Shown here one piece after another: positions 37,998 through 53,947 of a DNA stretch of 64,000 nucleotides. Location of the stretch: contig CAZBBK010000029.1 in NCBI GenBank assembly GCA_964490075.1, positions 383-64,382 on the forward strand. The letters are read 5' to 3'. The position numbers and the translations under genes were made by a program. Source of the stretch: an uncultured Gemmatimonadota bacterium. GTDB taxonomy: Bacteria > GCA-2686955. The number at the start of each line of letters is the position of its first letter. The stretch's first letter is position 1. The notes below the pieces were generated by a model, which saw only the letters and a program-made list of their open reading frames with translations, was not told the origin of the DNA and did not search any database.

Positions 37998-38442
37998 TTT
38001 CGGGATTCTGGCTGGTGAGGGTTCTGGCGCTGGCGTCGTACTCGTAGTCGAGACCCCAGGCGTCGGTGGTGATGGCTTCGATGTCGTCCTCCAGGTAGGG
38101 ACCGTTCCAGCCCAGCCCGGTGAAGCGGTCGAAGGCCGAAACGCCCTCGGGAGGATCGACCAGCGCCTCCAGGTCGGGCGGTGGTGCCCCCAGGTCGTTC
38201 TCGTAGCCGGTGCGCTCGGATTGCGAGTCGCCGACGATCGCCCCGATGATGATCTGCATCTCGCGGCGCGTGGCGCTCTCCTTGCCGCTGGAGATCACAT
38301 CGCCCAGGTGGGGCAGCGCGACGGCGGAGAGCAGCCCCAGCACCACGATGACCACCACGATCTCCACCACGGTGAATCCGCTGGTGGCGTGACGGGCCGC
38401 GGCCGGCTGGCTTCTGGTTCTCTGATCACGAGGTCGATGCAC
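37975..38442 (-). CDS. GspG-like pseudopilin
   Basis: It contains SG-FTVVEIVVVIVVLGLLSAVALP and GWNGPYLEDDIEAITTDAWGLDYEYD. A GTG start at 38442 leaves an 83-bp divergent promoter region with the GDPD gene. An alternative GTG lies at 38556. Confidence 0.6.
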   Translation of the reverse strand: MHRPRDQRTRSQPAAARHATSGFTVVEIVVVIVVLGLLSAVALPHLGDVISSGKESATRREMQIIIGAIVGDSQSERTGYENDLGAPPPDLEALVDPPEGVSAFDRFTGLGWNGPYLEDDIEAITTDAWGLDYEYDASARTLTSQNPENVIQMSF

Positions 38443-38525
38443 GCTGCGCTCTGTGACTGCATCCCCTGGTTTGATCGACACGTGGGGCGCCGCAAATTGA
38501 GAGAAGCTGCCAGAATCGGTTCCAC

Positions 38526-39284
38526 ATGCACCCCTTTCTCGACCATCCCCGACCACTGGCCTTCGCCCACCGGGGCGGTGCGCAGGAGGCGCCCGAGAAC
38601 ACCATGCGGGCCTTCGAGGCGGCCGTGCGCCTGGGCTACCGCTACGTCGAGACCGACCTCAGGCTCAGTGCCGACGGCGTGCCCATGGTCTTTCACGACG
38701 CAACGCTGGAGCGGGTGACCGACGGCGTCGGGCTGGTCGCGGAACGGACGCGGCGCGAGCTGCAGGGGGTGCGGGTGGCGGGCGGCGAGCCGATTCCGAC
38801 TCTGGAGGAGCTGCTCGGCACCTGGCCCGATCTGCGCGTCAACATCGACCCCAAGTGCGACGCCGTGCTGACGGTCCTGGCCGCCACGCTGCGCCGCACG
38901 CGTGCCCTCGATCGAGTCTGCGTCGCCTCCTTCTCCGAGCGCCGCATCCGGCGCGCGCGGCGCCTCATCGGTCCCGGCCTCTGCACTTCGCTGGGGCCTC
39001 TGGGCGTGGCGCGGCTGCGGCTCCTCGGCGGTGCGGCGGGGCGCGGGTCGGGCGCGGCCCCCTGCGCTCAGGTGCCGCCTCGCTGGCGCGGCATTCCCCT
39101 GGTCGACGCGCGGCTGCTGCGCGCCGCCCGGCGCGCGGACCTGCAAGTGCACGTCTGGACCGTCGATCGGCAGCGGGAGATGCACCGGCTGCTGGAGCTC
39201 GGGGTCGACGGCCTGATGAGCGATCGGCCCACCCTGCTGCGCGCGGTCTGCCTAGAGCGCGGCCTGTGGACCGGCGGCGCCTAA
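38526..39284 (+). CDS. Glycerophosphodiester phosphodiesterase (GDPD family)
   Basis: FAHRGG...ENTMRAF...YVETDLRLSADGVPMVFHD is the GDPD catalytic N-terminus. Confidence 0.75.
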   Translation: MHPFLDHPRPLAFAHRGGAQEAPENTMRAFEAAVRLGYRYVETDLRLSADGVPMVFHDATLERVTDGVGLVAERTRRELQGVRVAGGEPIPTLEELLGTWPDLRVNIDPKCDAVLTVLAATLRRTRALDRVCVASFSERRIRRARRLIGPGLCTSLGPLGVARLRLLGGAAGRGSGAAPCAQVPPRWRGIPLVDARLLRAARRADLQVHVWTVDRQREMHRLLELGVDGLMSDRPTLLRAVCLERGLWTGGA

Positions 39285-39421: not shown

Positions 39422-40456
39422 TCACCGTATTTGTGGAGTGGGCCACTTTGAGCGATCGAAACGCCCCGGCAGATCGGTTCCGCAGCGCCGGCAGCGTCCC
39501 CCGCTCAGGCCGCCCGCATCGACCCGGTAACCCCGCCGCTCGACCAGCACGGCGCCGCAGCGAGGGCAGCTCGTCCGCTGCCCCTCCGGGTCGGCGATGT
39601 TGCCCGTATAGACGAAGCGCAGACCCTCTTCCAGGGCGATTTCGCGCGCGTTGCGCACCACTTGCGGAGGCGTGGCCGGGTTGCGCAGCTCGAAGGCCGG
39701 ATGGTAGGCGCTGAAATGCAGCGGAAGATCGGCATGGAGCTGGTCGCGGATCCAGGCGCAGAGGGCGTGCAGCTCGCGCTCCGAGTCGTTTTCGCCGGGG
39801 ATCAAGAGGGTCGTGATCTCGGTCCACACGCGGGTCTCGTGCACCAGGTAGCGCAGAGTGTCGAGCACCGGTTCCAGGTGGGCCCGGCAGAGCCGGCGGT
39901 AGAAGGACTCGGACAGCGACTTGAGATCGACGTTGGCGGCATCGATGGTCGCGAAGAGCTCTTCTCGGGCTCCTTCCTGGATGTAGCCGGCGGTCACCGC
40001 GACCGAGCTCAGCCCGACTTCGCGACAGGCCTGCGCGGTGTCGATGGCGTACTCGGCGAAGATCACCGGATCGTTGTAGGTGTAGGCGACCGAGCGGCAG
40101 CCCTGGCGCAGAGCCGCACGGGCGATCTCCCGCGGTGCGGCCGCCCGTCCCGCGCCGTCGACCGGCTCCGCCTTCGACAGATGCCAGTTCTGGCAGAACC
40201 GGCAGCCTAGATTGCAGCCGGCGGTGCCGAAGGAGAGCACGTTGCTCGCGGGGTGGAAGTGGTAGAGGGGCTTCTTCTCGATCGGGTCGACCGCGAGCCC
40301 CGAAGAGCGTCCGTAGGTCGAGAGCACGATCCCCCGCTCATCGGCCTCGCGCACAAAGCAGAAGCCGCGCTGTCCGGCCGCCAGGCGGCAGCAACGGGGG
40401 CAGAGATCGCAGACCCAGCGTGCCCCCCGGCGATGAAACCAGCGAGCGCGGCTCAC
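39422..40456 (-). CDS. AmmeMemoRadiSam-system radical SAM enzyme (AmrS-like)
   Basis: It has an N-terminal Cys cluster (CDLCPRCC...GFCFVRE) and the radical SAM motif GTAGCNLGCRFCQNW. The GTG start overlaps the upstream stop (GTGA). Confidence 0.7.
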   Translation of the reverse strand: MSRARWFHRRGARWVCDLCPRCCRLAAGQRGFCFVREADERGIVLSTYGRSSGLAVDPIEKKPLYHFHPASNVLSFGTAGCNLGCRFCQNWHLSKAEPVDGAGRAAAPREIARAALRQGCRSVAYTYNDPVIFAEYAIDTAQACREVGLSSVAVTAGYIQEGAREELFATIDAANVDLKSLSESFYRRLCRAHLEPVLDTLRYLVHETRVWTEITTLLIPGENDSERELHALCAWIRDQLHADLPLHFSAYHPAFELRNPATPPQVVRNAREIALEEGLRFVYTGNIADPEGQRTSCPRCGAVLVERRGYRVDAGGLSGGRCRRCGTDLPGRFDRSKWPTPQIR

Positions 40457-41688
40457 GGCTGGGTCGTCTTCTGAGCACGGAAGCGTTTCAACTCGAAGGG
40501 CTCCGAGGGATCGATCCCGGCCTTGCGCAGGGCGATGGCGATGGCCTGGTCGGCGCTCTCCACGAAGGGCAGGGCCGGCAGCAGCACCCCGCGGCGCTCG
40601 CCCGCCGAGACGATCACGCCGTCCACCCGGGGATCGAGCAGCGACCGATCCGCCACCGGCTCGATCTCTCCCAACGAGCTGACCTCGTAGCGCAAGCGCG
40701 GCAGCTCCTCCTCCTCGACCGCCTGGAAGCGCGGATCCCGGGTCGCCGAGCTGACCGCGACCTCCGCGACCTCTCGATAGAGCCACTCGCCGGCCGGTCG
40801 CAGTCGGCCGGAGCAGCCGCGCAGCTCGCCCCCCTTGCGAATCGTCACGAAGATGCCGCGCCCGGGCGGGCCGCGGTCCGGAATGCGGGTGCGATCGCCG
40901 CGCACGTGGCAGCCGACCGCGCAGCGGGCGATGGCGTAGAGTGCCGGCCGCGCGTCGTGGAGGATCGCCACGGTGTAGCCCACACCCCAGGGTCCTTCGT
41001 AGGAGAGCACCTCCGAGGCCAGCGGTCCGCCGGCCGCCACCATCGCCACCCGCGTGCTGTCGATCACGTCTTCCGCGGCCTCGGCGCGCGCGGGGGCCTC
41101 CAGGGCGCTGCGCCAGGCAGCGCGGCGCAACGCCCGCACGAAGGAGCGGTCGAACTCGGCGGCCCGCGGGTGGTAGCCGGCCGGCGCGTCCTCTCGCAGT
41201 CGGTGGCTCATGTCGCCGGAGGCGATCACCGCGGTGCGGCCCGGCAGCCTCGCTAGCGCTTCGCCCCACGCGTCGTCCTCGTCGAGGGGGTAGGGCGGCG
41301 CCAGCACCACCGTCGGTCCCTCCCAGTCCGCCCGCCGCAAGAAGAGCAGCGGAACGACCGCGCCGTGATCGAGCTCGCCGCGCGGCAGATGCCCTGGTGC
41401 GAGCGCACGCAGCGCCTCGGGGTCGGGGGGCAGCGAGAGCCGCGCCTCGGCATGACCGAAGCGCGCCAGATCGCCCGCGATCGGTCCCTGCCACCCCCCC
41501 CAGATCGACCGGTGGCGTGGAGAGTGCGGCGAGATCACCACCACGCGGTCGGGGGCGGCGGCGACACAGCGCTGCGCCACCTCATTCATGGATCGGGTCG
41601 TGGCGCCACAGCGGTGGGCCTCGGCCCCACCCACATCTGGCACCACGATCGGGGCGTGGCACATCAGGGCCGCGAACTCGACTCCCAC
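40453..41688 (-). CDS. Fusion protein with an N-terminal Memo/LigB-superfamily domain and a C-terminal AMMECR1 domain
   Basis: The N-terminal half reads VGVEFAALMCHAPIVVP...VVVISPHSP, which resembles the class III extradiol dioxygenase/Memo fold. The C-terminal half (ARCAVGCHVRGD...GIFVTIRKGGELRGCSG) is AMMECR1. The start is GTG. Confidence 0.6.
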   Translation of the reverse strand: MGVEFAALMCHAPIVVPDVGGAEAHRCGATTRSMNEVAQRCVAAAPDRVVVISPHSPRHRSIWGGWQGPIAGDLARFGHAEARLSLPPDPEALRALAPGHLPRGELDHGAVVPLLFLRRADWEGPTVVLAPPYPLDEDDAWGEALARLPGRTAVIASGDMSHRLREDAPAGYHPRAAEFDRSFVRALRRAAWRSALEAPARAEAAEDVIDSTRVAMVAAGGPLASEVLSYEGPWGVGYTVAILHDARPALYAIARCAVGCHVRGDRTRIPDRGPPGRGIFVTIRKGGELRGCSGRLRPAGEWLYREVAEVAVSSATRDPRFQAVEEEELPRLRYEVSSLGEIEPVADRSLLDPRVDGVIVSAGERRGVLLPALPFVESADQAIAIALRKAGIDPSEPFELKRFRAQKTTQP

Positions 41689-41778: not shown

Positions 41779-43422
41779 ATGCCCATGATCCGACCGACAT
41801 TTACAGCGACCGCCCTTCTTGCGTTGGTCGCCCACAGCGCGGCCGCCGCCGGCCTCGGGGAGGGGCGTTCCTTCGCCGGCTTGCTGGCCTCTGGAGCCGG
41901 CCCCGGCGACCTGATGCACCTGCCCGGCGCCCCCCCGGCCGCCACGCTGACCTGGGACACCCTCTTCGTCGACCCGGCCTGCACGCCCCCCCAGCCGCCC
42001 TGCTACGGCACCATCCAGGAGGCGGTCGATCAGGCCCGGGCCGGTTCCGTCGCCGTGATCCGCGTGGCGCCGGCCCTCTACCAGGAGCGGATCCACGTCT
42101 ATCCCACGGCACCGGCCTTCTCGGCGCTCATCCTCGAGGCTCAGGATCCCGTCTCGCCGCCTCGGCTGCGGCTCACCCACGATCCCGCCCTGGTCAAGGA
42201 CGACGAGGGCGCGGCGGCGATCGAGATTCACAATCGACCTCAGGACGGAGCGACCTGCGCCGATCTGCGGGTCGCCATCTGGGGGTTTGACGTCGAGGTC
42301 GCCGGCGACGGCTACGGCAGCGCGATCTCGGTCTGGAGCACCCAGGACGATCCCGATCAGCAGTGGAACACCGCGCTCGACATAGCCGGCAATCGGATCC
42401 GTTGCGAGGCCGGCGGACCCGCACTGGTCATCGGTCTCCGGGCCTCGGAGCTCGAGGGACTGATCGATCAATCGCCGAAATGGGGCTGGGTACGCAACAA
42501 CATCATCAGCAGCACCGAGACTCAGGAAGGGGACGGCGTCGCCTCCTGGAAGTTCGTCGGCGCAATCGCCAACAACGAGATCGCCGCGGCCTCGGAGGGC
42601 TGGCATCTGGGATTCGCCCGCACCGATTCGCGACACGAATCGGGGCCGATCCCGGGCGACTTCCGGACCGCGACCGTGGAGCACAACTACTTCCACTGCA
42701 CCACCTGGAACGCCTTTCATTTCGCCCACGGCTCGGTTGGCCTCTTCCGCAACAACATCATGACCGAATCGCAGCAGGTGCTGCTTCCGAATCAGACCCT
42801 GTCGACCGGGCTCGGTTTTTTCGCCGGGCCGCCGCCCACCGACGAACCCGACTACCCGGTGATGGTCGACGTGCATAACAACGTCGCCTTCGCGAACGAC
42901 GGCAGCGGCTTCATGGTCCACGAAGACGCTCGGGTGCGCTTCGGCGGCAACTCCTCGGTCGGCAACGGCTGGGGGCTGGCCGATCCCAACGCCGGCTTCG
43001 GTTTCGAGCTGCGCACCACCGGCGGACCGGCCGACCATCTGCTCACCGACTTCAACCTGCTCTACCAGAATCGCGAGGACTACTCGCGGCCCAGCCTGGA
43101 GGCCCGCCACGACGTCAACGAGGGCGGCATCTGGCCCGATCCGGGGGGCGCGCCGCCGCGCTTCGTCGGCGATCTCGATCCCCGCGGCTACAGCTTCCAG
43201 CTGCGCACCGCGGCCGGACCCCACCCCTGCGGCTACGACGTTCCGGTCGAGTCGCCGGCCATCGATGCCGGGCCGCCGATGATCCCCGACGCCGCCGGTG
43301 CGGGTCTGGGCGGAGCGCGCAACGACGTCGGCGCCTACGGAGGCCCCGGCGCGATCTGGGATCCGGAGGGCTTCGATCCCTGCTGGCAGATCTGGATCGA
43401 CCCCGCGCTCTGCGAGCGCTGA
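41779..43422 (+). CDS. Secreted right-handed parallel beta-helix protein (paralogue of the 4936..6143 gene)
   Basis: It has a signal peptide (MPMIRPTFTATALLALVAHSAAAAG), NN/NG-rich rungs (RNNIMTE, HNNVAFANDGSG), and a tail SPAIDAGPP...DVGAYGGPG. An AGGAAG lies 7 nt before the ATG. Confidence 0.55.
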   Translation: MPMIRPTFTATALLALVAHSAAAAGLGEGRSFAGLLASGAGPGDLMHLPGAPPAATLTWDTLFVDPACTPPQPPCYGTIQEAVDQARAGSVAVIRVAPALYQERIHVYPTAPAFSALILEAQDPVSPPRLRLTHDPALVKDDEGAAAIEIHNRPQDGATCADLRVAIWGFDVEVAGDGYGSAISVWSTQDDPDQQWNTALDIAGNRIRCEAGGPALVIGLRASELEGLIDQSPKWGWVRNNIISSTETQEGDGVASWKFVGAIANNEIAAASEGWHLGFARTDSRHESGPIPGDFRTATVEHNYFHCTTWNAFHFAHGSVGLFRNNIMTESQQVLLPNQTLSTGLGFFAGPPPTDEPDYPVMVDVHNNVAFANDGSGFMVHEDARVRFGGNSSVGNGWGLADPNAGFGFELRTTGGPADHLLTDFNLLYQNREDYSRPSLEARHDVNEGGIWPDPGGAPPRFVGDLDPRGYSFQLRTAAGPHPCGYDVPVESPAIDAGPPMIPDAAGAGLGGARNDVGAYGGPGAIWDPEGFDPCWQIWIDPALCER

Positions 43423-43427
43423 TAGCC

Positions 43428-44630
43428 CTATACGTCGCTGGTCATGATGAAGAGCGGCTGGCGCACGAACGACTGGTAGGTCGGTCGCAGGCGATCGACG
43501 TTGTAGTACTTCTGCACGTCGATCCCCTTCTTGCGTCCCACCACCACGTCGACCGGCACGCTGTCGTAGACGCCGTTGCGCAGGCTCACCAGGCGCCCCG
43601 AGGTGTTCGAGAGCACCAGGTCCATCGCCAGGTTGCCGAAGGCCATCGGCACGATCGAGTCGAGCGCATCGGGATCGCCGCAGCGCACCAGGTAGCCCAG
43701 ACGCTGGTTGACGATGGCGATCTGCCTGCCCTTGTTGTACTTGGGCGAGAGCGCCTTGAGATGGGCCGCGACCTTGTCGCCGATGCCGCCCAGCTTGCGA
43801 TGGCCGTACTGGTCGGTCTCCTCGCCCTCGAATGACATCTCGCTCTCGCCGGCGATCGTCGCCCCCTCGGAGACCAGCACCACCGAGTAGGGGTTGTGGT
43901 GGCGCTTGCGGTCCTCGATCAAGAGCTCCGCCAGGCGCTCGATGTCGAAGGGATGCTCGGGGATCACGCAACGGTCGGCGGCGCCGGCCATGGTCGGGAG
44001 CAGGGCGGTGAAGCCGGCGTAGCGGCCGAACACCTCGATCACCAGGAAGCGCTCGTGCGAGCCCGCGGTGGTGCGCAAGCTATGGGTCAGCTCGATGGTG
44101 CGGCTGACACAGGTGCTGAAACCGATGCAGTAGTCGGTTCCCGGCACGTCGTTGTCCATGGTCTTGGGGACCGCGACGATCTTCACGCCATTGGCATGCA
44201 GGCGGTGGCCGTAGCTCAAGGTGTCGTCGCCGCCGATCGGGATCAGGAAGTCGACCCCCAGGAAATCCAGGCTCGCCAGCACCGCGTCGGTCACGTCGTT
44301 GATCTGTTCAGTGTAGCGCTCTTTCAAGTGCGGCGGCACGAGCTCCAGCGGCAGATGGCTGGGACGGGTGCGAGAGGTGTGCAGGAAGGTGCCGCCGGTG
44401 CGGCCGGCACGGTCCACCACCTCCTCGGTCAGCAGCCGCACGCAGTGCGAATTGTCTGCTTCCTGGTCCGGCACCAGGTCGACCAGCCCGGCCCAGCCGC
44501 GGCGGATGCCGAGCACCCGGTAGCCTTCGCGAAGCGCCCGGAGGGTGAGCGCGCGGATGGCGGGATTGAGCCCCGGCACATCGCCTCCACCGGTCAATAT
44601 GGCGATCGTGCCCTTGACTGCTGACATCAT
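43428..44630 (-). CDS. 6-phosphofructokinase, pyrophosphate-dependent type by signature residues
   Basis: GGDDT (in place of GGDGS) and PKTMDND (in place of PGTIDND) are the Gly-to-Asp and Gly-to-Lys substitutions diagnostic of PPi-PFKs. A GGAG lies 5 nt before the ATG. Confidence 0.8.
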   Translation of the reverse strand: MMSAVKGTIAILTGGGDVPGLNPAIRALTLRALREGYRVLGIRRGWAGLVDLVPDQEADNSHCVRLLTEEVVDRAGRTGGTFLHTSRTRPSHLPLELVPPHLKERYTEQINDVTDAVLASLDFLGVDFLIPIGGDDTLSYGHRLHANGVKIVAVPKTMDNDVPGTDYCIGFSTCVSRTIELTHSLRTTAGSHERFLVIEVFGRYAGFTALLPTMAGAADRCVIPEHPFDIERLAELLIEDRKRHHNPYSVVLVSEGATIAGESEMSFEGEETDQYGHRKLGGIGDKVAAHLKALSPKYNKGRQIAIVNQRLGYLVRCGDPDALDSIVPMAFGNLAMDLVLSNTSGRLVSLRNGVYDSVPVDVVVGRKKGIDVQKYYNVDRLRPTYQSFVRQPLFIMTSDV

Positions 44631-44777
44631 CGACTCCTGTCGTGCGTGCATCTGTGGCGCCCGCGCCGGCGCCATGGCGGAGGGGCAGATTAGCAGCAGC
44701 CGAGGTTGCTTGCACGAGGTCCTCCACAGGCGAACGATTCGCTAGACTGCCCGCCGACCCATCCCGGAGGATCGACC

Positions 44778-46097
44778 GTGCTGAACACCATCTCCCGAGT
44801 CCGGAATCGTCTCGATCCCGCGCGCAACTCGATCGACACCCTCGATGCCGAGGAGGCGGCGCGCCGGGTGGCCAGTGGCGACCCCGCGGCGGTGGCCGAG
44901 ATCGAGGGCTCGTTCGCGATCGTCGCCTGCGATCCGCCCTACGTGCGCATGGCGCGCACCCTCGATCGGCCGATGCGCTATTTCCTCGCCAAGGCCGCCG
45001 ACGGCCCCGAGCTGGTGGTGTCGGACCGGATCGACGACATCGCCGGCTGGCTGCGCACGCGCGGCATGGAGGAGCAGTTTCATCCGAGCTACACCCGCAT
45101 GGTGCCGGCCCACTACCTGCTCAGCTTGCACCTGGTCGGCTGTCCCGATCCCGAACCCAGCGTGGAGCGCTTCTTCAGCCCTCCGCGCGGCGTCCTGCCG
45201 GCCGATCTCGACCTCGTCGGAGAGCGCTACGTCGGCGCCCTGGCGACCGAGATCGAGAGCATGCTGCGCCCCATCCCCGCCGACGAGGCGATCGGCGTCG
45301 CCTTCTCCGGCGGCATCGACTCGGGCGCGGTCTTCCTCCTGGTGCACCACGCGATGCTGGCGCTCGGCATGAGCCCGGCCCGTCTCAAGGCCTTCACCCT
45401 GCACATGGAAGGCGGTCCCGATCTGGCCCAGGCGCGCGAATTCCTGGAGGCTCTCGATCTGGCCCTCTTCCTGGAGCCGATCGAAGTCTCCGCCGACACC
45501 CTCGACCGCGACCGGATCCTGCGTGTGGTCGAGGACTACAAGCCGCTCGATCTCGAAGCGGCCGCCATGAACCTCGCCCTGCTCACCGGGGTGCGCGCCC
45601 GCTACCCCGAATGGCGTTGGGTCTTCGACGGCGACGGCGGCGACGAGAACCTGAAGGACTATCCGATCGAGGCGAGCTCCGAGCTCACCATCCGCTCGGT
45701 GCTCGGCAACCCACTCCTCTACCAGGAGGGATGGGGGGTGGGCAGCATCAAACACAGCCTCACCTACTCGGGCGGGCAGAGCCGGGCCTGCACGCGCGGC
45801 TACGCACCCGCCGCGCGCACCGGCTTTCAGCTCCTCTCGCCCCATGCGCGCCGCCCGGTCGTCGCCGTGGCCGAGGCGATCCCCTTCGTCGAGCTCACCG
45901 ATTGGCGGGTTGATCGGCTCTACGCGCTCAAGGGCGAGATCGTGCGGCGCGGAATTCGCGCCATCACCGGTCGCGAGATGCCGGTGTTCCCGAAACGTCG
46001 CTTCCAGCACGGTGCTCTCGCCGAGACCCGCCTGCGGCGGATTCTGCCGCTCGACGAGGCCGAGTGCCGGCGCCGCTACCACACGCTCTGCGCGTGA
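44778..46097 (+). CDS. Asparagine-synthetase-like PP-loop ATP pyrophosphatase domain protein, lacking the glutaminase domain
   Basis: The PP-loop is IGVAFSGGIDSGAVFLLV. The ~200-aa N-terminal region was not recognised. A GGAGGA lies 7 nt before the GTG. Confidence 0.55.
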   Translation: MLNTISRVRNRLDPARNSIDTLDAEEAARRVASGDPAAVAEIEGSFAIVACDPPYVRMARTLDRPMRYFLAKAADGPELVVSDRIDDIAGWLRTRGMEEQFHPSYTRMVPAHYLLSLHLVGCPDPEPSVERFFSPPRGVLPADLDLVGERYVGALATEIESMLRPIPADEAIGVAFSGGIDSGAVFLLVHHAMLALGMSPARLKAFTLHMEGGPDLAQAREFLEALDLALFLEPIEVSADTLDRDRILRVVEDYKPLDLEAAAMNLALLTGVRARYPEWRWVFDGDGGDENLKDYPIEASSELTIRSVLGNPLLYQEGWGVGSIKHSLTYSGGQSRACTRGYAPAARTGFQLLSPHARRPVVAVAEAIPFVELTDWRVDRLYALKGEIVRRGIRAITGREMPVFPKRRFQHGALAETRLRRILPLDEAECRRRYHTLCA

Positions 46098-46963
46098 GCG
46101 ATCCGCGCCGGCCCCACGCCTTTCACATCGAGCAGGAGCCGCACGGCGCCGGCCTGGTCTCGATCGCAACACTTTTTCTGAAGGGTCGACGCTGCCCCTG
46201 GCGTTGCGTGATGTGCGATCTCTCGCGGCACGCACCCGCCACCCCGACGCCGCCGGGCGCCATCCCCGAGCAGATCGACCACGCGCTCGAGAACTTGTCT
46301 CCAGCCGTCTGGATCAAGCTCTACAACGCCGGGTCGTTCTTCGACCGAGCCGCCGTGCCGCCCGCCGACCACGGCGCGATCGCTCAGCGACTGCGCCCGT
46401 TCGAGCGGACCATCGTCGAATGCCATCCGAAGCTGGTCGGCGACGATCTGCTCCGCTTCCACGAGCGCCTCGACGGCGCCGAGCTCGAGGTGGCCGTCGG
46501 GCTCGAGACCGCCGATCCCGCCACCCTGGCGCGGCTCGACAAGGGCGCCGGCCTCGACGACTTCGCCCGCGCCGCGCGCCTCTTGCGGCGGGTAGGTGTC
46601 CTCCTGCGCGCCTTCGTTCTGATCCAGCCGCCCTTTCAGGCGCCCGGCGAGGCGCTGATGTGGGTTCGGCGCTCGGCCGACTTTGCCTTCCACCACGGCG
46701 CCGAGACCCTGGTGTTGATTCCGACCCGCCCGGACAGCGCCGAGCTGCGCCGCATGGTGGCCCGCGGCACCTTCCACCCACCCGACTTGACGACCGTCGA
46801 GGACAGCCTCGATCTGCTCCTGGAGCGGCCGCGCGGCCGGGTGCTGGTCGATCTGTGGGGATTCGACGAGCTCTACGCCGCCGCCCCGGGAATCACCGAG
46901 CGGCGCCGGCGTCTCGAAGGGATCAACCTCTCTCAACGAGTGACGGATCGGATCGGGACCTGA
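46094..46963 (+). CDS. Small radical SAM protein (CPWRCVMC cluster), translationally coupled to the PP-loop gene
   Basis: The GTG start overlaps the upstream stop (GTGA). KGRRCPWRCVMCDL is a CxxxCxxC motif. The size is ~289 aa. Confidence 0.5.
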   Translation: MSDPRRPHAFHIEQEPHGAGLVSIATLFLKGRRCPWRCVMCDLSRHAPATPTPPGAIPEQIDHALENLSPAVWIKLYNAGSFFDRAAVPPADHGAIAQRLRPFERTIVECHPKLVGDDLLRFHERLDGAELEVAVGLETADPATLARLDKGAGLDDFARAARLLRRVGVLLRAFVLIQPPFQAPGEALMWVRRSADFAFHHGAETLVLIPTRPDSAELRRMVARGTFHPPDLTTVEDSLDLLLERPRGRVLVDLWGFDELYAAAPGITERRRRLEGINLSQRVTDRIGT

Positions 46964-47014
46964 TCCACCTGGTTATCCTGGACGTATCGCCTCACTTTGC
47001 CCACAGAGGATCCG

Positions 47015-50000
47015 ATGCCCCGTCCCCTTCCCGCCCTGCTCCTGGTCTTCCTCCTGCCCGCCGCCGCCCTCGGCTACAGCCAGGGCTTCAACTGCGGTGA
47101 CAACAAGAGCCGCACCGCCGCCGACGGCGTGGTCTATGCGGCGGACCGGGTCTACAACGCCGGCAACGGCGCCGGCCACATCGGCGGCGAGAGCTACCGG
47201 CCGGGGCTCTTCGACAGCGTCGACGATATTGGCGGCGTCGATTCCGTCACCCACCGGCGAATGCTCGGCTCGCGCCTGGAAGGATGGCGCGAATACCGCT
47301 TCGATTTGCCCAGCGGCGATTACGTGGTGCACCTGCATCTGCTCGAGAATTTCCACCACTGGCGCGGGCTGCGCAGCTTCTCGATCGCCGCCGAAGACGG
47401 GGCGCTGGTGCTCGATCTGGACATCTTCGCCGAGGTCGATCGGCGCTACGCCCTGGCCCTGCGCCGCGCGGTCGGGGTCACGGACGGTCAGCTCAACGTG
47501 CGGGCCGCGGCCAGCATCGACCAGACATGCATCCAGGGCATCTACGTGGAGTCCTACACCGACGACGCCACGCCGCCGCCGGTGCCGACCAACCTGGTCG
47601 CGCTGCCGAGCTACCGCGAGGCGCTCTTGCTGCTTGAGCGTCCCTGGGCCACCGACGAGCTGGGAGTGCATATCTGGCGCACCGATCTCAGCGCCGGCGG
47701 TCCCGAAGAGCGGATCACCGAGGAGCCGTTGCTCTTCGACCGCCACCGCGACCGCGGCCTGGTCCCCGGCCACCAGTACCGCTACCGCCTGAGCGCGGTC
47801 GACGCCGGCGGCAACGAGAGCGATCCGAGCGCGCCCGTCCTGGTGACGCCGCTCGGCGCCGGCGACTCGATCCTACCGGTGCGCGGCTTCGACATGGCCG
47901 AGCCCGACTTCGTCACTCTCTACACCCAGCGCGGCGACGACGACTACCTGCCGGCGCTGGTCTGGGCCGACGGCGAGCTCTGGCCCGATGCCGAGTTGCG
48001 GCTGCGCGGCAACACCACGCGCAGTCTCACCAAGAAGAACTACAAGGCGCGCACCTCGGCCGGCGATCTCTTTCCGGGCAATCGGATCAAGTGGAACCTG
48101 CAGTCGGAATGGCAGATGCCTTCGCCCTTGCGCGAGAAGCTCGGCTTCGAGTACTTCGCCATCGCCGGCGCCCACGCCTCGGCCGCCGAGTACGTCAACC
48201 TGGAGCGCGGCGACGAGTACCTGGGCGTCTATGTCGACATAGAGCAGGTCGACAAGTACTTCCTGCAGAACCGCGGTCTCTCGGCCACCGTGTGGCGTGC
48301 CGACAGCGAGGAGGCTGGTGGCGATTTCACGCGCAAACCCCGTCTCGAGCTCTACTACCCGATCTACACACTGGAGCACGGCCGCTACGCCGACTACGCC
48401 GATCTCGACGAGCTCTTCCGGGTGGTCAACGAGAGCTCTCCCGAGGAGTTCCGCACCGCGATCCGCCAGGTCGTAGACATCGACTCCTTCATGCGTTTCT
48501 ACTCGGTACAGGCGCTGCTCTCGAACTGGGACCACGTGGTTCACAACTACTTTTTGATTCGCGACCATGCATCCGGCCTGTTCCATTTCGCGCCCTGGGA
48601 CGTCCAGCTCGGTTGGGATGATGTGCGTCATCCGATCGACTACGGCACCCGCGATCACCGCTGGTTCTTCCTGTTCTACAATCGTCTCTACGAAAATCTG
48701 ATGTCTTCTCCGCAGTACGCGCGGATCTATGCAGCGACCCTCGGTACCCTCTTGCGCGACACATTTCCTCTCGACGCGGTGCAGAGCTGGATCGCGGATG
48801 ACCACGCCCTGGTACGTCCCGACGTCGAACGTGACATGCACAAGCCCGGCTACGAGGATCTGGGGCTTTTCGACGGGGAGCTCGCCTACCTGCAACAATT
48901 CATGGACGATCGGCGCGCCAACATCATCGAGCAGCTGCGCGGCTTCGCGCCACACCCGACGGTCAATCTCTTCGTCAACGAGCTGATGCGCTGGAACCTG
49001 AGCGGCATCGTCGACGAAGCGCTCGAGCACGAGCCCTGGGTCGAGATCCACAACTTCGGCACCGAGACCATTGGGCTGGAGGGGATCGGCCTGTCGCGGG
49101 ACCCCGATGAGCCGCATCAGTGGACCTTCCCCGCCGGAGCCGAGATCGGTCCCGGCGCGCATCTCGTGGTCTGGCTCGACGGCGAGCCGCTCGAGGGTCC
49201 GCTGCACACCTCCTTCCGGGCCGGAACCGGGCTGCAGTTGATCTACCTCTCACGCGCCGACGGCACCCCGATCGACGCCCTGGCGCCGGGCATGCCCGCT
49301 TTTCCGGACGTGCCCGACGCCCGCACCCCCGATGCCGGCGCCCAGATCATCCCGGTCGCCGCGCCGACTCCCGGCTCCGCCAACGATCCGCGCCCGGCGG
49401 TCGAGCTGCTGCTGGAGGGCGCCCGCGACTACCTGCCGGGAGACGAAGCCGCGGTCGAGATCGCGCTCGTCAACCACACGCCGGTGGCCGTCGACGGCGC
49501 GCTCGCGGTCACGCTGCTGGTCGGCGCCGAGGAGATCGAGCTCGAGGAGACGGCGATCCATCTCGACCCCGGCGGCTCGCTGGGCGAACGCGTCGAGCTG
49601 ATGGTGCCCCCCGGCGCTCCGGCGCTGCGCGCGACCGTGCGCGCCGAGCTGCGGGAGTCGGGGGGGCACCTGCTCAGCTCCCAGCTCTTCGAAGTCCGGG
49701 TCTGGGACGGACGCCCGATCCCACTGGTGATCAACGAGCTGATGGCAGACAACGACACCACCGTGGCCGACCCCAACGACCAGTTCGAGGACTGGGTCGA
49801 GATCCACAATCCGAGCGAGCGCAGCGTCCCGCTGGAGGGTCTCTATCTCTCGGACGACGCGTCCGATCCCACCAAGTGGGCCTTTCCCCAACGCTCGATC
49901 GCCTCCGGCGAATACCTGATCGTCTGGTGCGACGACGACGAGGACCAGGGGCCCTTGCACACCCCCTTCAAGCTCTCGGCCGCCGGGGAGGAGCTGGGGC

Positions 50001-50149
50001 TCTACGACCTCGACGTGCGCGGCAACGCGGCTATCGACTACACCGCCTTCGGCGATCTATCCGATGACCGGGTGTGGGGCCGCAGCCCGGACGGCATCGG
50101 CGAGTTCTCCCTGCTCCCCCGCGCCACCCCGGGAGCTCCCAACCCCTGA
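47015..50149 (+). CDS. Secreted multidomain CotH-kinase-family protein (malectin-like, FN3, CotH, two lamin-tail domains)
   Basis: It has a signal peptide. DGVVYAADRVYNAGNGAGHIGG is malectin-like, and PPPVPTNLVA...YRYRLSAVDAGGNESDPS is FN3. LRLRGNTTRSLTKKNYKA...NWDHVVHNYFLIRDHASGLFHFAPWDVQLGW is the CotH core. Two WVEIHN...GxxLxDD repeats are LTD domains. Confidence 0.65.
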   Translation: MPRPLPALLLVFLLPAAALGYSQGFNCGDNKSRTAADGVVYAADRVYNAGNGAGHIGGESYRPGLFDSVDDIGGVDSVTHRRMLGSRLEGWREYRFDLPSGDYVVHLHLLENFHHWRGLRSFSIAAEDGALVLDLDIFAEVDRRYALALRRAVGVTDGQLNVRAAASIDQTCIQGIYVESYTDDATPPPVPTNLVALPSYREALLLLERPWATDELGVHIWRTDLSAGGPEERITEEPLLFDRHRDRGLVPGHQYRYRLSAVDAGGNESDPSAPVLVTPLGAGDSILPVRGFDMAEPDFVTLYTQRGDDDYLPALVWADGELWPDAELRLRGNTTRSLTKKNYKARTSAGDLFPGNRIKWNLQSEWQMPSPLREKLGFEYFAIAGAHASAAEYVNLERGDEYLGVYVDIEQVDKYFLQNRGLSATVWRADSEEAGGDFTRKPRLELYYPIYTLEHGRYADYADLDELFRVVNESSPEEFRTAIRQVVDIDSFMRFYSVQALLSNWDHVVHNYFLIRDHASGLFHFAPWDVQLGWDDVRHPIDYGTRDHRWFFLFYNRLYENLMSSPQYARIYAATLGTLLRDTFPLDAVQSWIADDHALVRPDVERDMHKPGYEDLGLFDGELAYLQQFMDDRRANIIEQLRGFAPHPTVNLFVNELMRWNLSGIVDEALEHEPWVEIHNFGTETIGLEGIGLSRDPDEPHQWTFPAGAEIGPGAHLVVWLDGEPLEGPLHTSFRAGTGLQLIYLSRADGTPIDALAPGMPAFPDVPDARTPDAGAQIIPVAAPTPGSANDPRPAVELLLEGARDYLPGDEAAVEIALVNHTPVAVDGALAVTLLVGAEEIELEETAIHLDPGGSLGERVELMVPPGAPALRATVRAELRESGGHLLSSQLFEVRVWDGRPIPLVINELMADNDTTVADPNDQFEDWVEIHNPSERSVPLEGLYLSDDASDPTKWAFPQRSIASGEYLIVWCDDDEDQGPLHTPFKLSAAGEELGLYDLDVRGNAAIDYTAFGDLSDDRVWGRSPDGIGEFSLLPRATPGAPNP

Positions 50150-52162
50150 TCCCTCACTCGCCCCGGAACGCGGCGGCGGCGCCTCCCCGGCGACGTGCGC
50201 GCCGATCACCTCCAGCCAGTCGGCCCCGAACTGCCGGGCCTTGGTCGGGCCGATGCCGTGGATTTCCAGCAGCTCCTGCTGCCCCGCGGGCCGCGCCTGT
50301 GCCAGACCGCGCAAGGTCCGATCCGAGGCCACCACGAAGGGCGGCACCGCCAGCTCGCGGGCGGTCTCCAGGCGGTGCGCGCGCAGCTTTTCGAAGAGCT
50401 CCAGATCTTCGCTCTCCAGCTCCACCGCGACCGGCTTCAACGCCGCCGCCGCCGCGCGTCGGGTCACCGGGGCGGGCTGCGTGCGGCTCCGCTCGGGGGG
50501 AAGCAGAATGCGCGCCGGCTTGCGCCCGTACATCACCTCGCCACCCTCGCGGGTCAGAACCGCCAGCGGCCGCTCGCCGGTCGTGAAGCTCACCCATCCG
50601 GCGGTGACGCAGCGCCGCAGCAGGGCGATGATCCACTCGGGGCGACGATCGGCCAGCACTCCGAAGGTGCTGACCCTGTCGAGGCTGCTGCGCGATAGCC
50701 GCGGATCGGGGTCGCCGCGGAGCAGCTTGGCCGCCAGCCCGAGCCCGTAGCGGCGGTGCACTCGGGCGACCCCGCAGAGCGCCTTGCGAGCCAGCTCCGC
50801 CGCCAGCTCGGGGCCCGCCTCGGGCGTGGCCAGGCTCACGCAGACGTCGCAGCGCCCGCAGCCCTGCAACGCATCCTCCTGAGTTCCGAAGTAGCGCAGA
50901 ATCGCGTCGTGACGGCAGCTTCCGCCCTCCGCCCAGCGCATCAGCTCCAGGAAGAGCGACCACTTGTGCTCCACCACGCTTGCGTCGGGCGCGCGCCCCT
51001 CGATCTCCGCCTCGATCATCCTGCGGCGCAGCGGAAAGTCCTGGGCGGAGGAGAGCATCAGCCCCCAGGCGGGCTCCCCGTCGCGCCCGGCGCGCCCCAC
51101 CTCCTGGTAGTACGACTCCAGCGACCCCGGGGGCGCCAGGTGGATCACGGTTCGCACGTCGCCGCGATCGATGCCCATGCCGAAGGCGTTGGTGGCGACC
51201 ACCACCTCGAGCCGGCCGCTGCCGAACTCGCCCTGGGTGCGTGCCCGCTCGGCCGGCGCCAGGCCGGCATGGTAGGGATCCGAGCGCCAGCCCAGCTCGC
51301 TCAGGCGTCGCGCCTCGGCCTCGGCCATCTTGCGGGTCGGCGAATAGACGATGGCGCTGCCGCGTCCTTCGCCGGGCGCCCGCAACGCATCGGCCAGCTG
51401 GGCGTCGACGCGCCGCCGCCGCTCCGCGGCACCGGCCGTCTCCGCGGCACGCAGAATCAGGTTGGGACGGGCGAAGCCGCGGATCAGTTGCGGGGTGTCG
51501 GCGCCGAGGCCGAGGCGGGCCAGGATCTCGTCGCGCACGATCGGCGTGGCGGTCGCCGTGCAGGCCAGGATGCGGGCCTCGGGGAGGTCGCGGATCAGCG
51601 CGCCGATCTGCAAGTACTCGGGCCGGAAATCGTGCCCCCACTCGCTGATGCAATGCGCCTCGTCGATCGCCACCAGGGGGCAGTCGAGACGTCGCAGCCG
51701 GGCGCGAAAGCCGTCGAGGGCCAACCGCTCCGGCGCGACATAGATCAGCTCGTAGCGGCCCTGCTCCATGGCCTCGATGCGCCGCCCGAGCTCCGCCGAG
51801 TCGAGCGTGGACGCCAGAAAAGTGGCGGAGACGCCGCGCCGCTCGAGGCTCTCCACCTGGTCGTTCATCAGCGCGATCAAGGGCGAGATCACCAGCGTGG
51901 TGCCGCCCAGAATCAGCGCCGGCAGCTGATAGGCGAGGCTCTTACCGCCGCCGGTCGGAGCCACCAAGAGCAGCCGGCGGCGTTCCAGCAGGGTGTCGAT
52001 CGCTTCCCGCTGGCCGGGACGGAATTCGGTGAAGCCGAGGCGGATCAGCGTGGCGTCGAGAGGATCGGTGGGCACGGGCGGGGTCCGGGGTATCGGCGCC
52101 GGCGTTGTTGCCGCGGCGCGGTCCCCATCATCCGCGAAAGATGCGCCCCGGTCACTGGTCAA
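50057..52162 (-). CDS. recQ: ATP-dependent DNA helicase RecQ
   Basis: APTGGGKSLAYQLPAL, DEAHCISEWGHDFRPEY, a Zn-binding CGRCDVC, and RQC and HRDC regions are present. The 3' end overlaps the convergent CotH gene by 93 bp. Confidence 0.85.
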   Translation of the reverse strand: MTSDRGASFADDGDRAAATTPAPIPRTPPVPTDPLDATLIRLGFTEFRPGQREAIDTLLERRRLLLVAPTGGGKSLAYQLPALILGGTTLVISPLIALMNDQVESLERRGVSATFLASTLDSAELGRRIEAMEQGRYELIYVAPERLALDGFRARLRRLDCPLVAIDEAHCISEWGHDFRPEYLQIGALIRDLPEARILACTATATPIVRDEILARLGLGADTPQLIRGFARPNLILRAAETAGAAERRRRVDAQLADALRAPGEGRGSAIVYSPTRKMAEAEARRLSELGWRSDPYHAGLAPAERARTQGEFGSGRLEVVVATNAFGMGIDRGDVRTVIHLAPPGSLESYYQEVGRAGRDGEPAWGLMLSSAQDFPLRRRMIEAEIEGRAPDASVVEHKWSLFLELMRWAEGGSCRHDAILRYFGTQEDALQGCGRCDVCVSLATPEAGPELAAELARKALCGVARVHRRYGLGLAAKLLRGDPDPRLSRSSLDRVSTFGVLADRRPEWIIALLRRCVTAGWVSFTTGERPLAVLTREGGEVMYGRKPARILLPPERSRTQPAPVTRRAAAAALKPVAVELESEDLELFEKLRAHRLETARELAVPPFVVASDRTLRGLAQARPAGQQELLEIHGIGPTKARQFGADWLEVIGAHVAGEAPPPRSGASEGSGVGSSRGGAGEQGELADAVRAAAPHPVIG

Positions 52163-52202
52163 GATTCGCCGCCGCGGGTCGAAATCTGCCTCCTGGCCTG
52201 GT

Positions 52203-52718
52203 TCAGGCCCCCAGGCGTGCGAGGACGCGCAGGAACTCCATGGTGGAGATGATGCCGACGAATCGCTGCCGATCGTCGACCACCAAGACCCGGTGGATCT
52301 CCAGGCGGATCATCACCCGCGCCACCTCCGGCACCTTCATCTCGGTGGGCACGGTGTGTACCAGGGGGGTCATCAGGTCTTCCGCCACCGTGGTGTCGTC
52401 CTCGGGAATGGTGACCCGGTAGCGCTCGTCGTCCTCCTGGGTCTTGTACCACTCCTCGCGATGCTCGCTGCTCAGCACCGGCCCTTCGCTCAGATGGGTG
52501 ATCAGATCGCGCCAGGAGACGATGCCGATCACCACTCCCGACTCGTTCACCACCGGCATGCCGGAGATGTTGCTGTCGACCAGCACTCGCTCGACCTCGG
52601 CGATCGAGTCCTTGGCGTCGACCGCAACGATCTCATTGTGCATGATGTCGGCCGCGTTCAGCGCCGCCAGGTCGACCTGTTTCACCGTTTGGGACTCCGG
52701 GGCTGATAATGCTGGCAT
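52203..52718 (-). CDS. CBS-pair domain protein
   Basis: It has two CBS motifs (DIMHNEIVAVDAKDSIAEV...GMPVVNESGVVIGIVS and LMTPLVHTVPTEMKV...HRVLVVDDRQRFVGIIS). The start is uncertain. Confidence 0.55.
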   Translation of the reverse strand: MPALSAPESQTVKQVDLAALNAADIMHNEIVAVDAKDSIAEVERVLVDSNISGMPVVNESGVVIGIVSWRDLITHLSEGPVLSSEHREEWYKTQEDDERYRVTIPEDDTTVAEDLMTPLVHTVPTEMKVPEVARVMIRLEIHRVLVVDDRQRFVGIISTMEFLRVLARLGA

Positions 52719-52851
52719 CCAGTCGGGGGGCAGTGTGCTTCCCGCGCGCCGGCAGGATAGCGAAAACTCCCCGCGCACGTCAGCGCCCCGGATCAGAAAA
52801 TTTTCGAACGAACGGAAATGCTGCGGCGTGCTCGCAGCGAGGAGAGAACGA

Positions 52852-53865
52852 ATGCGCGCGATCCAGATCGAAGGCGGATTCGGCATCGACCATCTGAGAG
52901 TCGTCGAGCGGCCCGATCCGCGCCCGGCGGCGGACCAGGTGCTGGTGCGGATCGCGGCCGTCTCGCTCAACTACCGCGACCTCTTGATGGTCCGGGGCCA
53001 CTACGACCCGCGCCAACCCTTGCCCTTGGTCCCCTGCTCCGACGCCGCCGGAGTGGTGGTCGAGGTCGGCGACCAGGTCCGGCAGCTCCGGGTCGGAGAT
53101 CGGGTCATGCCGATCTTCGCTCAGGACTGGTGGGACGGGGATCCGGTGCGCGCCGCCCTGCGCTCTACCCTGGGCGGGCCGCGCGACGGCGTGCTGGCCG
53201 AGCTGGTCGCGCTGCCGGAGGCAGGCCTGGTGCCGATTCCGGCCCATCTCGACGACCGCGAGGCCGCCACCCTGCCCTGCGCCGCGCTCACCGCCTGGAG
53301 CGCACTCGTGACCCACGGAGCGATCGCCCCCGGCGCCTCCGTGCTGACTCTCGGCACCGGCGGCGTGTCGCTCTTCGCCCTGCAGCTGGCCAAGCTGCTC
53401 GGGGCACGGGTGGCGATCACCTCCTCCAGCGAGGCCAAGCTGGCGCGCGCGCAAGAGCTCGGCGCCGACCACGGCATCCACTACCCGAGCGATCCCACCT
53501 GGGGCCGCAGTGCGCGCCGCTGGGCCGGGGGAGAGGGGGTCGACCAGGTGATCGAGCTCGGCGGGGCCGGCACCCTGCCCCAATCGCTGGAGGCCGTGCG
53601 CCCGGGGGGACGGCTGAGCCTGATCGGCGTACTGGCGGGCGCCGGCGCGAAGCTCAGCCTGCTGCCGATCCTGATGCGCAACATCACCGTGCAAGGCATC
53701 TTCGTCGGCCATCGGATGGGCTTCGAGGCGCTGAACCGCGCGGCAGCCGAACACCGCCTGCGCCCGGTGATCGACCGCGTCTTCCCCTTCGAAGAGGCCG
53801 GCGCCGCGCTGGAGCACCTGGCGGGCGGAGCCCACTTCGGGAAGATCGTCATCGAGATAGCTTGA
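52852..53865 (+). CDS. Zn-independent MDR-family NADPH:quinone oxidoreductase / alcohol dehydrogenase
   Basis: It starts MRAIQIEGGFGIDHLRVVERPDP and has a Rossmann motif (LTLGTGGVSLFALQLAKLLGARV). A GAGGAG lies 9 nt before the ATG. Confidence 0.8.
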   Translation: MRAIQIEGGFGIDHLRVVERPDPRPAADQVLVRIAAVSLNYRDLLMVRGHYDPRQPLPLVPCSDAAGVVVEVGDQVRQLRVGDRVMPIFAQDWWDGDPVRAALRSTLGGPRDGVLAELVALPEAGLVPIPAHLDDREAATLPCAALTAWSALVTHGAIAPGASVLTLGTGGVSLFALQLAKLLGARVAITSSSEAKLARAQELGADHGIHYPSDPTWGRSARRWAGGEGVDQVIELGGAGTLPQSLEAVRPGGRLSLIGVLAGAGAKLSLLPILMRNITVQGIFVGHRMGFEALNRAAAEHRLRPVIDRVFPFEEAGAALEHLAGGAHFGKIVIEIA

Positions 53866-53947
53866 TGGGCGCCGTGGCGCGATCCGAACCCCTGTCCGAA
53901 TCTGCTAGCATCGGCCACCTCCTCCATACCCTCGCCGGGCCCAGACC

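Follow-up and report, generated by a model that had tools for sequence, protein, structure and literature searches.

A conserved gene pair encoding an asparagine-synthetase-like enzyme and a RaSEA-like radical SAM enzyme in an uncultured Gemmatimonadota bacterium

We analyzed 64,000 nucleotides (nt) of an uncultured Gemmatimonadota bacterium (assembly GCA_964490075.1, contig CAZBBK010000029.1, positions 383 to 64,382 of the forward strand), a stretch with a base composition of ~69% G+C that we refer to as the window, and focused on two of its genes, designated here A and B. Gene A (44778..46097, + strand) encodes a 439-amino-acid (aa) asparagine-synthetase (AS)-like adenylating enzyme of the ATP-pyrophosphatase (PP-loop) type without a glutaminase nucleophile, and gene B (46094..46963, +) encodes a 289-aa radical S-adenosylmethionine (SAM) enzyme, a shortened representative of a bacterial family that is sister to archaeal RaSEA. 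Gene A opens with GTG at 44778, 6 nt downstream of a Shine-Dalgarno-like GGAGGA read from the sequence (44766..44771, +), and closes with TGA at 46095-46097; its start is supported by homologues, which begin at the same alignment column. The stop codon lies within a GTGA junction (46094..46097, +) at which B may start. Were translation to begin instead at the in-frame GTG at 46064, which GAGG precedes by 4 nt, B would have 299 aa; B overlaps A with either start, and the 4-nt overlap is also found in the gene calls of the closest relatives (loci L085-L088). Gaps of ~100 nt (44676-44777) and 51 nt (46964-47014) precede A and follow B, respectively. A preliminary description of the window had reported this GTGA-coupled arrangement, with SGGIDSG in A and CPWRCxMC in B, and we recovered both open reading frames (ORFs) and their overlap as described. 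A and B are real genes and not chance ORFs, given their >8000 and 1535 database matches and mean predicted local distance difference test (pLDDT) values of 91 and 95 for their respective AlphaFold (AF2) models.

The sole Pfam match of A is Asn_synthase (PF00733; aa 168-299, E 1e-10), and on the asparagine synthetase equivalog model, TIGR01536, it scores 38.5 bits against a cut-off of 267.1. A profile of A searched against PDB sequences aligns with human and E. coli asparagine synthetase from the PP-loop through a GDGGDE motif. The PP-loop motif itself, read from the translation as S177-G-G-I-D-S-G183 (45306..45326, +), aligns to SGGLDS of human ASNS and is invariant in 120 homologues. With the PP-loop, GDGGDE, and KRRFQ all present, A keeps the complete adenylation machinery of asparagine synthetase B (AS-B). 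It shares with AS-B the Asn_synthase domain, the SGGxDS PP-loop, and a G-x-G-x-D-E motif, whereas it is ~110 residues shorter and lacks the N-terminal Cys nucleophile: neither its N terminus (MLNTISR) nor the family consensus (MxxYIERVVDL) contains Cys2. Pfam finds no glutamine amidotransferase (GATase) domain in A, which bears out the earlier description of the enzyme as lacking a glutaminase. Having lost the N-terminal Cys and the first part of the glutaminase domain, A is unable to take nitrogen from glutamine.

The N-terminal region of A, previously described as ~200 aa without assignment, proved instead to be a recognizable if shortened domain. Foldseek placed β-lactam synthetase (1mc1_A) first among PDB folds for the AF2 model of A (120 homologues as input, predicted TM score 0.92), with E 5e-14 and a TM score of 0.66 over 444 columns; further full-length matches are to asparagine synthetase from human and E. 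coli, carbapenam synthetase CarA (1q19, TM 0.62), and TsnB9. Because the model aligns over its full length with β-lactam synthetase, the first ~135 aa (44778..45182, +) are a Cys-less remnant of the class II, or N-terminal nucleophile (Ntn), glutaminase fold, as in β-lactam and carbapenam synthetase. A profile search adds a weak match between aa 35-78 and ASNS residues 109-154, which lie in the glutaminase domain.

Conservation within the A family is high. Its best 120 database matches are 438-463 aa long and 60-72% identical to window A, and the alignment of 120 homologues has 71% mean column identity and 90 invariant columns. Invariant motifs include GCPDP (aa 121-125, within the vestigial N-terminal domain), DGDGGDENLKDYPIE, LYQEGWGVG-IKHSLTYSGG, and KRRFQHGA. 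A further segment, LYQEGWGVGSIKHSLTYSGGQSR (aa 314-336; 45717..45785, +), forms a family-specific loop; it is near-invariant yet falls in the least confident part of the model (pLDDT 72/60/74 over aa 311-340), and this combination makes it a candidate lid for a substrate or partner. When 1.84 billion representatives clustered at 50% identity were searched exhaustively, A matched 286 of them at E<=1e-30, mostly fragments, with few full-length clusters.

Gene B matches Radical_SAM in Pfam at 32 bits, and its three cluster cysteines (C34-PWR-C38-VM-C41 in the translation, 46193..46216, +; spacing C34-x3-C38-x2-C41) are invariant in 120 homologues; its best 120 database matches are ~50% identical to it. 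The best NCBIfam match is TIGR01210, the model for RaSEA of archaeosine biosynthesis, at 83.4 bits against a cut-off of 212, and there is a weak match to MnmL/YtqA as well. The RaSEA model was likewise the best NCBIfam match for 6/6 B-family members tested, the five others scoring 92-111 bits. The B family is a bacterial sister of archaeal RaSEA and not its equivalog. The AF2 model of B is a compact radical SAM barrel that, among solved folds, best matches PFL-activating enzyme, the radical SAM domain of Elp3, and lipoyl synthase (LipA). A sequence-profile search of the PDB with B gave nothing meaningful, neither sequence nor fold search of that database returned a RaSEA match, and B has no SPASM/twitch domain.

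B had also been called unusually small, which holds for the window protein (289 aa, against ~320 aa typically) but not for its family. Typical members are extended at the N terminus (YP...RD-WI..RR) and end in a C-terminal region with a near-invariant CxxC...CxxC. Both features are missing from window B and its two nearest relatives (L085 and L088); the small size is thus due to loss of the extension and of the C-terminal Cys4 motif in this lineage. Window B further deviates at 18 of 104 columns conserved at >=90%, compared with a median of 2 for other members, while retaining the three cluster cysteines and most barrel motifs. At one other locus (L169, 10313-11260), a B that belongs to a full operon with A and a third gene, C, introduced below, also lacks the Cys4 motif. 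More than one lineage can therefore dispense with this motif, which may be lost where C is kept.

We compared the gene neighborhoods of A and B across genomes in two sets of loci. The A-centered set came from a profile scan for A with one genome per species and contains at least 80 loci, from Acidobacteriota, Verrucomicrobiota, Planctomycetota, Abditibacteriaceae, and Chitinophagaceae. In ~60 of 80 such loci, tblastn detects a B homologue that shares the strand of A and lies no more than a few hundred bases 3' of it. The B-centered set was obtained by scanning metagenome contigs for B, a locus being informative when it had enough upstream sequence to judge A; A is directly upstream of B in 62 of the 72 informative loci. 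Across at least four phyla, including Bacteroidota, the A-to-B order on one strand is kept with tiny gaps or overlaps, in line with the earlier proposal that the two act together. That proposal had also left the pair without a pathway, and here our searches concur: profile searches of A and B gave no equivalog assignment, only superfamily-level or sub-threshold NCBIfam and Pfam matches, PADLOC matched neither A, B, nor C to a defense system, and we found no published description of the A-B pair or the A-B-C module in the literature. We put at roughly 0.9 the probability that A and B are a conserved, uncharacterized functional pair that represents a reduced form of a three-gene module.

The third gene emerged from clustering of all ORFs in 85 loci, which revealed one further family common across phyla, a ~520-aa protein, C, encoded directly after B in 56 loci. 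Of the 75 informative loci in the B-centered set, 71 have C directly after B. The usual module order is AS-like ligase A, RaSEA-like radical SAM enzyme B, and PltM-like flavoprotein C, and the three-gene module is present in thousands of soil and aquatic bacteria. Apart from A, B, and C, the clustering yielded only shadow ORFs and clade-specific synteny (an ABC transporter and FG-GAP genes), and within +/-10 kb we found no gene family other than C shared across phyla. C matches PltM at 144 bits (E 6e-41) and tetracycline 7-halogenase at 131 bits, with Pfam matches to DAO and Trp_halogenase, and is a relative of flavin-dependent halogenases. Like PltM, CtcP, and ChlB4, it keeps GxGxxG as a conserved motif, together with a conserved Lys, in CGLKRGF(T/S)F, which aligns with CGIKLGFSF of PltM and which we take to occupy the halogenase lysine position known from PrnA. 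A WxW motif is also kept, although in C it reads WxWxL(R/Q) and not WxWxIP. Some Acidobacteriaceae loci (L014 at 6864-8237, and likewise L022, L026, L029, L059, and L070) encode, besides C, a second flavoprotein ~4 kb 5' of A; this protein resembles QhpG, GoxB, and geranylgeranyl reductase and matches Trp_halogenase in Pfam.

Gene C is absent from the 64-kb window, where the best tblastn match has an E value of 0.44. The closest relatives of the locus are marine contigs with an A 72% identical to window A and the same upstream synteny (radical SAM, LigB-AMMECR1, and PFK genes beside A-B), after which comes a convergent NUDIX gene; neither C nor CotH follows B there. The window lineage thus carries a reduced, two-gene A-B form of the module.

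What follows B in the window, after 51 nt, is a gene for a signal-peptide-bearing protein of ~1044 aa that combines Malectin and CotH kinase domains with a pair of Lamin-tail (LTD-LTD) domains (47015-50149, +). The preliminary description had emphasized this neighbor; the position is correct, but it is not conserved in the closest relatives. We consider it most improbable that A-B modifies the CotH protein or makes its ligand. The short distance, the shared strand, and the lack of a terminator-like site between B and CotH, in an otherwise uninformative promoter and terminator scan of 44500-47200, would suit such a role, whereas no CotH-type gene is among the families that recur near A or B in other loci. 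Because the closest relatives share the upstream synteny and have NUDIX, without CotH, after B, the adjacency is incidental; a CotH link was rejected at the family level, and only lineage-specific co-transcription is left to it.

The flanks of the module bear on whether its substrate might be a peptide encoded nearby, a gene for which the earlier description had suggested looking. All-against-all tblastx detected no conserved small ORF in the 450 nt 5' of A (123 loci) or 3' of C (85 loci). The similarities that it did detect correspond to lineage-specific neighboring genes only, and a large downstream group proved to be a convergent FG-GAP/ASPIC gene of Acidobacteriaceae; a precursor peptide beside the module was rejected, as only such neighbors occupy the flanks. 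Maturation of a peptide that is made by the ribosome and modified after translation (RiPP), with A as a lasso-type cyclase or C-terminal amidase and B as a peptide-modifying radical SAM enzyme, is therefore an explanation that we regard as very unlikely. RiPP clusters commonly include AS-like enzymes (lasso cyclases, TsrC, and PesC) as well as radical SAM enzymes (PMC13060819), and A would resemble lasso cyclases and the C-terminal amidases and nitrile synthetases of the TsrC and PesC type in AS-like adenylation of a substrate other than aspartate. The module differs from those systems, however, in that no leader protease, RiPP recognition element (RRE), or Pfam family of these kinds occurs among its neighbors, nor any transporter gene; the NCBIfam macrolactam-cyclase model gives no match to window A; B lacks the SPASM/twitch domain; and the gaps flanking the pair in the window are short. 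Searches for RNA elements were similarly negative near the genes: Rfam finds none in the whole window, and 5' of A in 11 loci from several phyla we found no riboswitch or RNA element, only a tRNA and an Acido-Lenti-1 RNA located away from the module.

The architecture of A, together with the halogenase-like C, raises another alternative, in which A is a cyclase of the β-lactam or carbapenam synthetase type that closes an intramolecular amide (lactam) in a small metabolite, and B, with C where the latter is present, tailors the metabolite or makes its precursor, the whole forming a miniature and unusually conserved biosynthetic cassette for a cofactor or signal. β-Lactam synthetase is the best structural match of A, and both are two-domain AS-B folds with a glutaminase-type domain devoid of the catalytic Cys. 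These synthetases adenylate a carboxylate with ATP at the PP-loop and then form an amide, as is predicted for A; lactamization by AS-like enzymes is on record, as are lasso cyclization, nitrile formation, and amidation at the C terminus (PMC13060819). The nearest matches of C, PltM and CtcP, are halogenases of small molecules. We nonetheless judge such a cassette improbable. Identity to β-lactam synthetase is only 16-17% (12-17% across the β-lactam and carbapenam synthetases), and A has a shorter N-terminal domain (~135 aa) and its own invariant motifs. No transporter, regulator, non-ribosomal peptide synthetase, polyketide synthase, or resistance gene travels with the module, and the locus is not a clavam or carbapenem cluster: A neighbors PFK, AmmeMemoRadiSam genes, and CotH in the window, and elsewhere shares only B and C. 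Its wide distribution and high conservation, with 60% identity across phyla, would also be unusual for secondary metabolism.

PP-loop enzymes include TilS and QueC, which act on a tRNA base and on a 7-deazaguanine precursor, respectively, and the A-B pair might likewise modify a nucleoside in RNA or DNA. The target of adenylation by A would then be a tRNA or rRNA base, or a side group there that bears a carboxylate, and B, as a radical SAM enzyme of the RaSEA/Elp3/MnmL type, would complete the modification, possibly a 7-deazaguanine derivative. The only family-level relatives of B are indeed RNA-modifying radical SAM enzymes (RaSEA at 83-111 bits and, weakly, MnmL/YtqA), and the Elp3 radical SAM domain is among its top structural matches. 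The high cross-phylum conservation of A, which extends to an archaeal homologue at 43% identity, would be in keeping with a macromolecular substrate that does not vary, and at one Verrucomicrobial locus A adjoins a gene for a 23S rRNA 5-methylcytosine (m5C) methyltransferase. That neighbor is not kept among the loci where A stands alone, however, and neither tgt, queC/D/E, nor any other RNA-modification gene recurs near the module in ~170 loci. The A and B families are both acidic, with a median isoelectric point (pI) of ~6.0, which argues mildly against an RNA substrate; the usual third gene, C, resembles halogenases of small phenolic molecules; and we know of no member of the asparagine-synthetase branch that acts on RNA. 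QueC and GAT-QueC, the latter a functional alternative to ArcS-RaSEA, resemble A in activating a carboxylate through an ATP-dependent PP-loop before nitrogen transfer, but A belongs to another PP-loop family (no QueC match in Pfam or NCBIfam) and has no 7-deazaguanine context. On balance, nucleoside modification seems to us unlikely.

The logic of the A-B pair most resembles that of ArcS and RaSEA, and the architecture of A resembles that of β-lactam synthetase. In Euryarchaeota, ArcS adds lysine to preQ0-tRNA only when bound by RaSEA, and RaSEA turns the lysine adduct into an amidine, so that the nitrogen comes from lysine in place of glutamine or ammonia (PMC11298593). Both systems have two components, a group-transfer enzyme tightly coupled to a small radical SAM enzyme, and B, whose best family match is RaSEA, shares the small Elp3-like barrel with its CxxxCxxC motif. 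They differ in that the partner here is an AS-like, ATP-dependent adenylating enzyme, as opposed to the TGT/PUA-type ArcS; in that the B family, at 83-111 bits, stays below the RaSEA cut-off of 212; and in that a flavoprotein gene, C, is usually attached to the module. The module hosts, moreover, are mostly bacterial, arcTGT and preQ0 genes are missing nearby, and no TGT-like gene recurs in the loci examined. Known enzyme superfamilies thus occur here in an undescribed, widely conserved combination.

By analogy with that archaeal system, we propose tentatively that A ligates an activated carboxylate to an amine, that B carries out radical C-N chemistry, and that C tailors the product; as a whole, this scheme strikes us as plausible, though short of even odds. 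The carboxylate that A adenylates would belong to a conserved cellular substrate, for which RNA is less likely than a small molecule or a protein side chain, considering the acidic pI of A and B and the absence of a peptide gene or RNA-modification neighbors. A would then couple the activated carboxylate to an external amine, for instance one on the side chain of lysine or another amino acid; the known reactions of AS-like enzymes include amidation, also at the C terminus, along with lactamization, lasso cyclization, and nitrile formation (PMC13060819). B, translationally coupled to A, would probably dock on it as RaSEA does on ArcS, and its 5'-deoxyadenosyl radical would cleave or rearrange the C-N-linked adduct. 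The net outcome would be an amide, or an amidine, installed without a glutaminase. In most bacteria C would then hydroxylate or halogenate an aromatic part of the product, a step that may have been lost or relocated in the window lineage. A narrower version, in which B functionally replaces the lost glutaminase of A, with A ligating a lysine-type donor amine and B excising the donor by radical C-N scission, we consider doubtful.

Several observations weigh against a paired function of this kind. A lacks a B within 10 kb in 17 informative loci, mostly from Verrucomicrobia (genome, metagenome, and look-up contigs pooled), and also lacks one nearby in its archaeal relatives, and ~10 loci of the B-centered set have B-C without A; the two enzymes may therefore work independently. 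The function of window B might be altered or decaying, as suggested by its changes at 18 of the 104 highly conserved positions, and the chemistry of B may differ from that of RaSEA, as its score is well below the RaSEA family cut-off. The mechanism is an analogy with one archaeal system whose ligase, ArcS, is unrelated to A, and A could simply use free ammonia.

This last point is central to an alternative in which A acts autonomously in primary metabolism, forming amides from ammonia as, say, a truncated asparagine synthetase would, and lies next to B for reasons of co-regulation or history and not because the two share a substrate. Ammonia can serve canonical AS-B enzymes (PMC13060819), and A stands alone in many Verrucomicrobia as well as in archaeal contigs, there beside Lrp/AsnC-type regulators typical of amino-acid metabolism. 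The A-alone proteins cluster together, and at the 80% level no residue column separates them from A-with-B proteins. An autonomous A would, however, leave unexplained the A-to-B order and overlapping or near-touching genes kept across several phyla, and it is difficult to reconcile with a C-terminal half that has family-specific invariant motifs absent from asparagine synthetases and with the score of A far below the asparagine synthetase cut-off. We regard it as quite unlikely, and favor the reading of A and B as a functional pair.

The contexts of distant A homologues (two archaeal contexts and two short contigs) offered no decisive functional clue. The archaeal homologues, in the regions L172 6095-9969 and L174 5533-8499, are 43% identical to window A. 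Each has beside it a divergently oriented ~328-aa protein with two Lrp/AsnC-type helix-turn-helix modules and weak matches to the AhbA/AhbB siroheme decarboxylases, and next comes a 144-aa ORF without a family match; in L172 a weakly heme-oxygenase-like ORF lies directly upstream. Neither B nor C was found near A in these two loci. In one Verrucomicrobial lineage with A alone (L001, 6995-7915, and L002, 2388-3308), a homologue of the RlmI-type 23S rRNA (cytosine-C5) methyltransferase is encoded directly upstream; it scores 435 bits on NF033380, below the cut-off of 650, and is not conserved in other A-alone loci.

A and B come from well-studied superfamilies, whereas their pairing and the parent three-gene module are without a described function. 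The module is among the more conserved gene sets common to Acidobacteriota, Verrucomicrobiota, and Planctomycetota, phyla that are dominant in soil and water and poorly studied. To our knowledge, the only role described for RaSEA is in archaeal tRNA modification. The module offers bacterial relatives of RaSEA, each with a defined partner enzyme, and so provides a concrete, testable entry point. It could reveal a glutamine-bypassing strategy for forming amides or amidines, or a new conserved metabolite, cofactor, or macromolecular modification. If B does stand in for the glutaminase, the pair would represent bacterial, ATP-dependent amidation from an amino-acid donor and would generalize the ArcS-RaSEA trick beyond archaeal tRNA; in Acidobacteriota, Verrucomicrobiota, and Planctomycetota its product would then be a metabolite, a cofactor, or a modified protein that is conserved very widely. 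Being widespread and compact and including bacterial RaSEA relatives, the module is a good experimental lead, of which the window holds a reduced form, divergent in B. The window copy is a real pair with an intact A and a reduced and divergent B, unrelated to the adjoining CotH gene.

Upstream of A-B, a radical SAM gene (~39422-40474, -) adjoins a gene for a 411-aa LigB/Memo-like-AMMECR1 fusion (40453-41688, -), giving an AmmeMemoRadiSam-type set at 39422-41688. The nearest marine relatives (L085 and L088) have the set in the same arrangement, with PFK and then A-B coming after it. A 690-aa ORF at 39422-41494 is a high-GC artifact that overruns the true radical SAM gene. A putative secreted protein of 541 aa (41797-43422, +) has only a weak right-handed β-helix match, and a 193-aa protein (37975-38556, -) has a prepilin-like hydrophobic N terminus and no Pfam match. 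No tRNA genes were found in the 64-kb window. Downstream, the interval 50057-55279 encodes housekeeping functions: a RecQ helicase (-), a CBS-pair protein (-), a zinc-type alcohol dehydrogenase/quinone oxidoreductase (+), and a PIN-PhoH ATPase (+).

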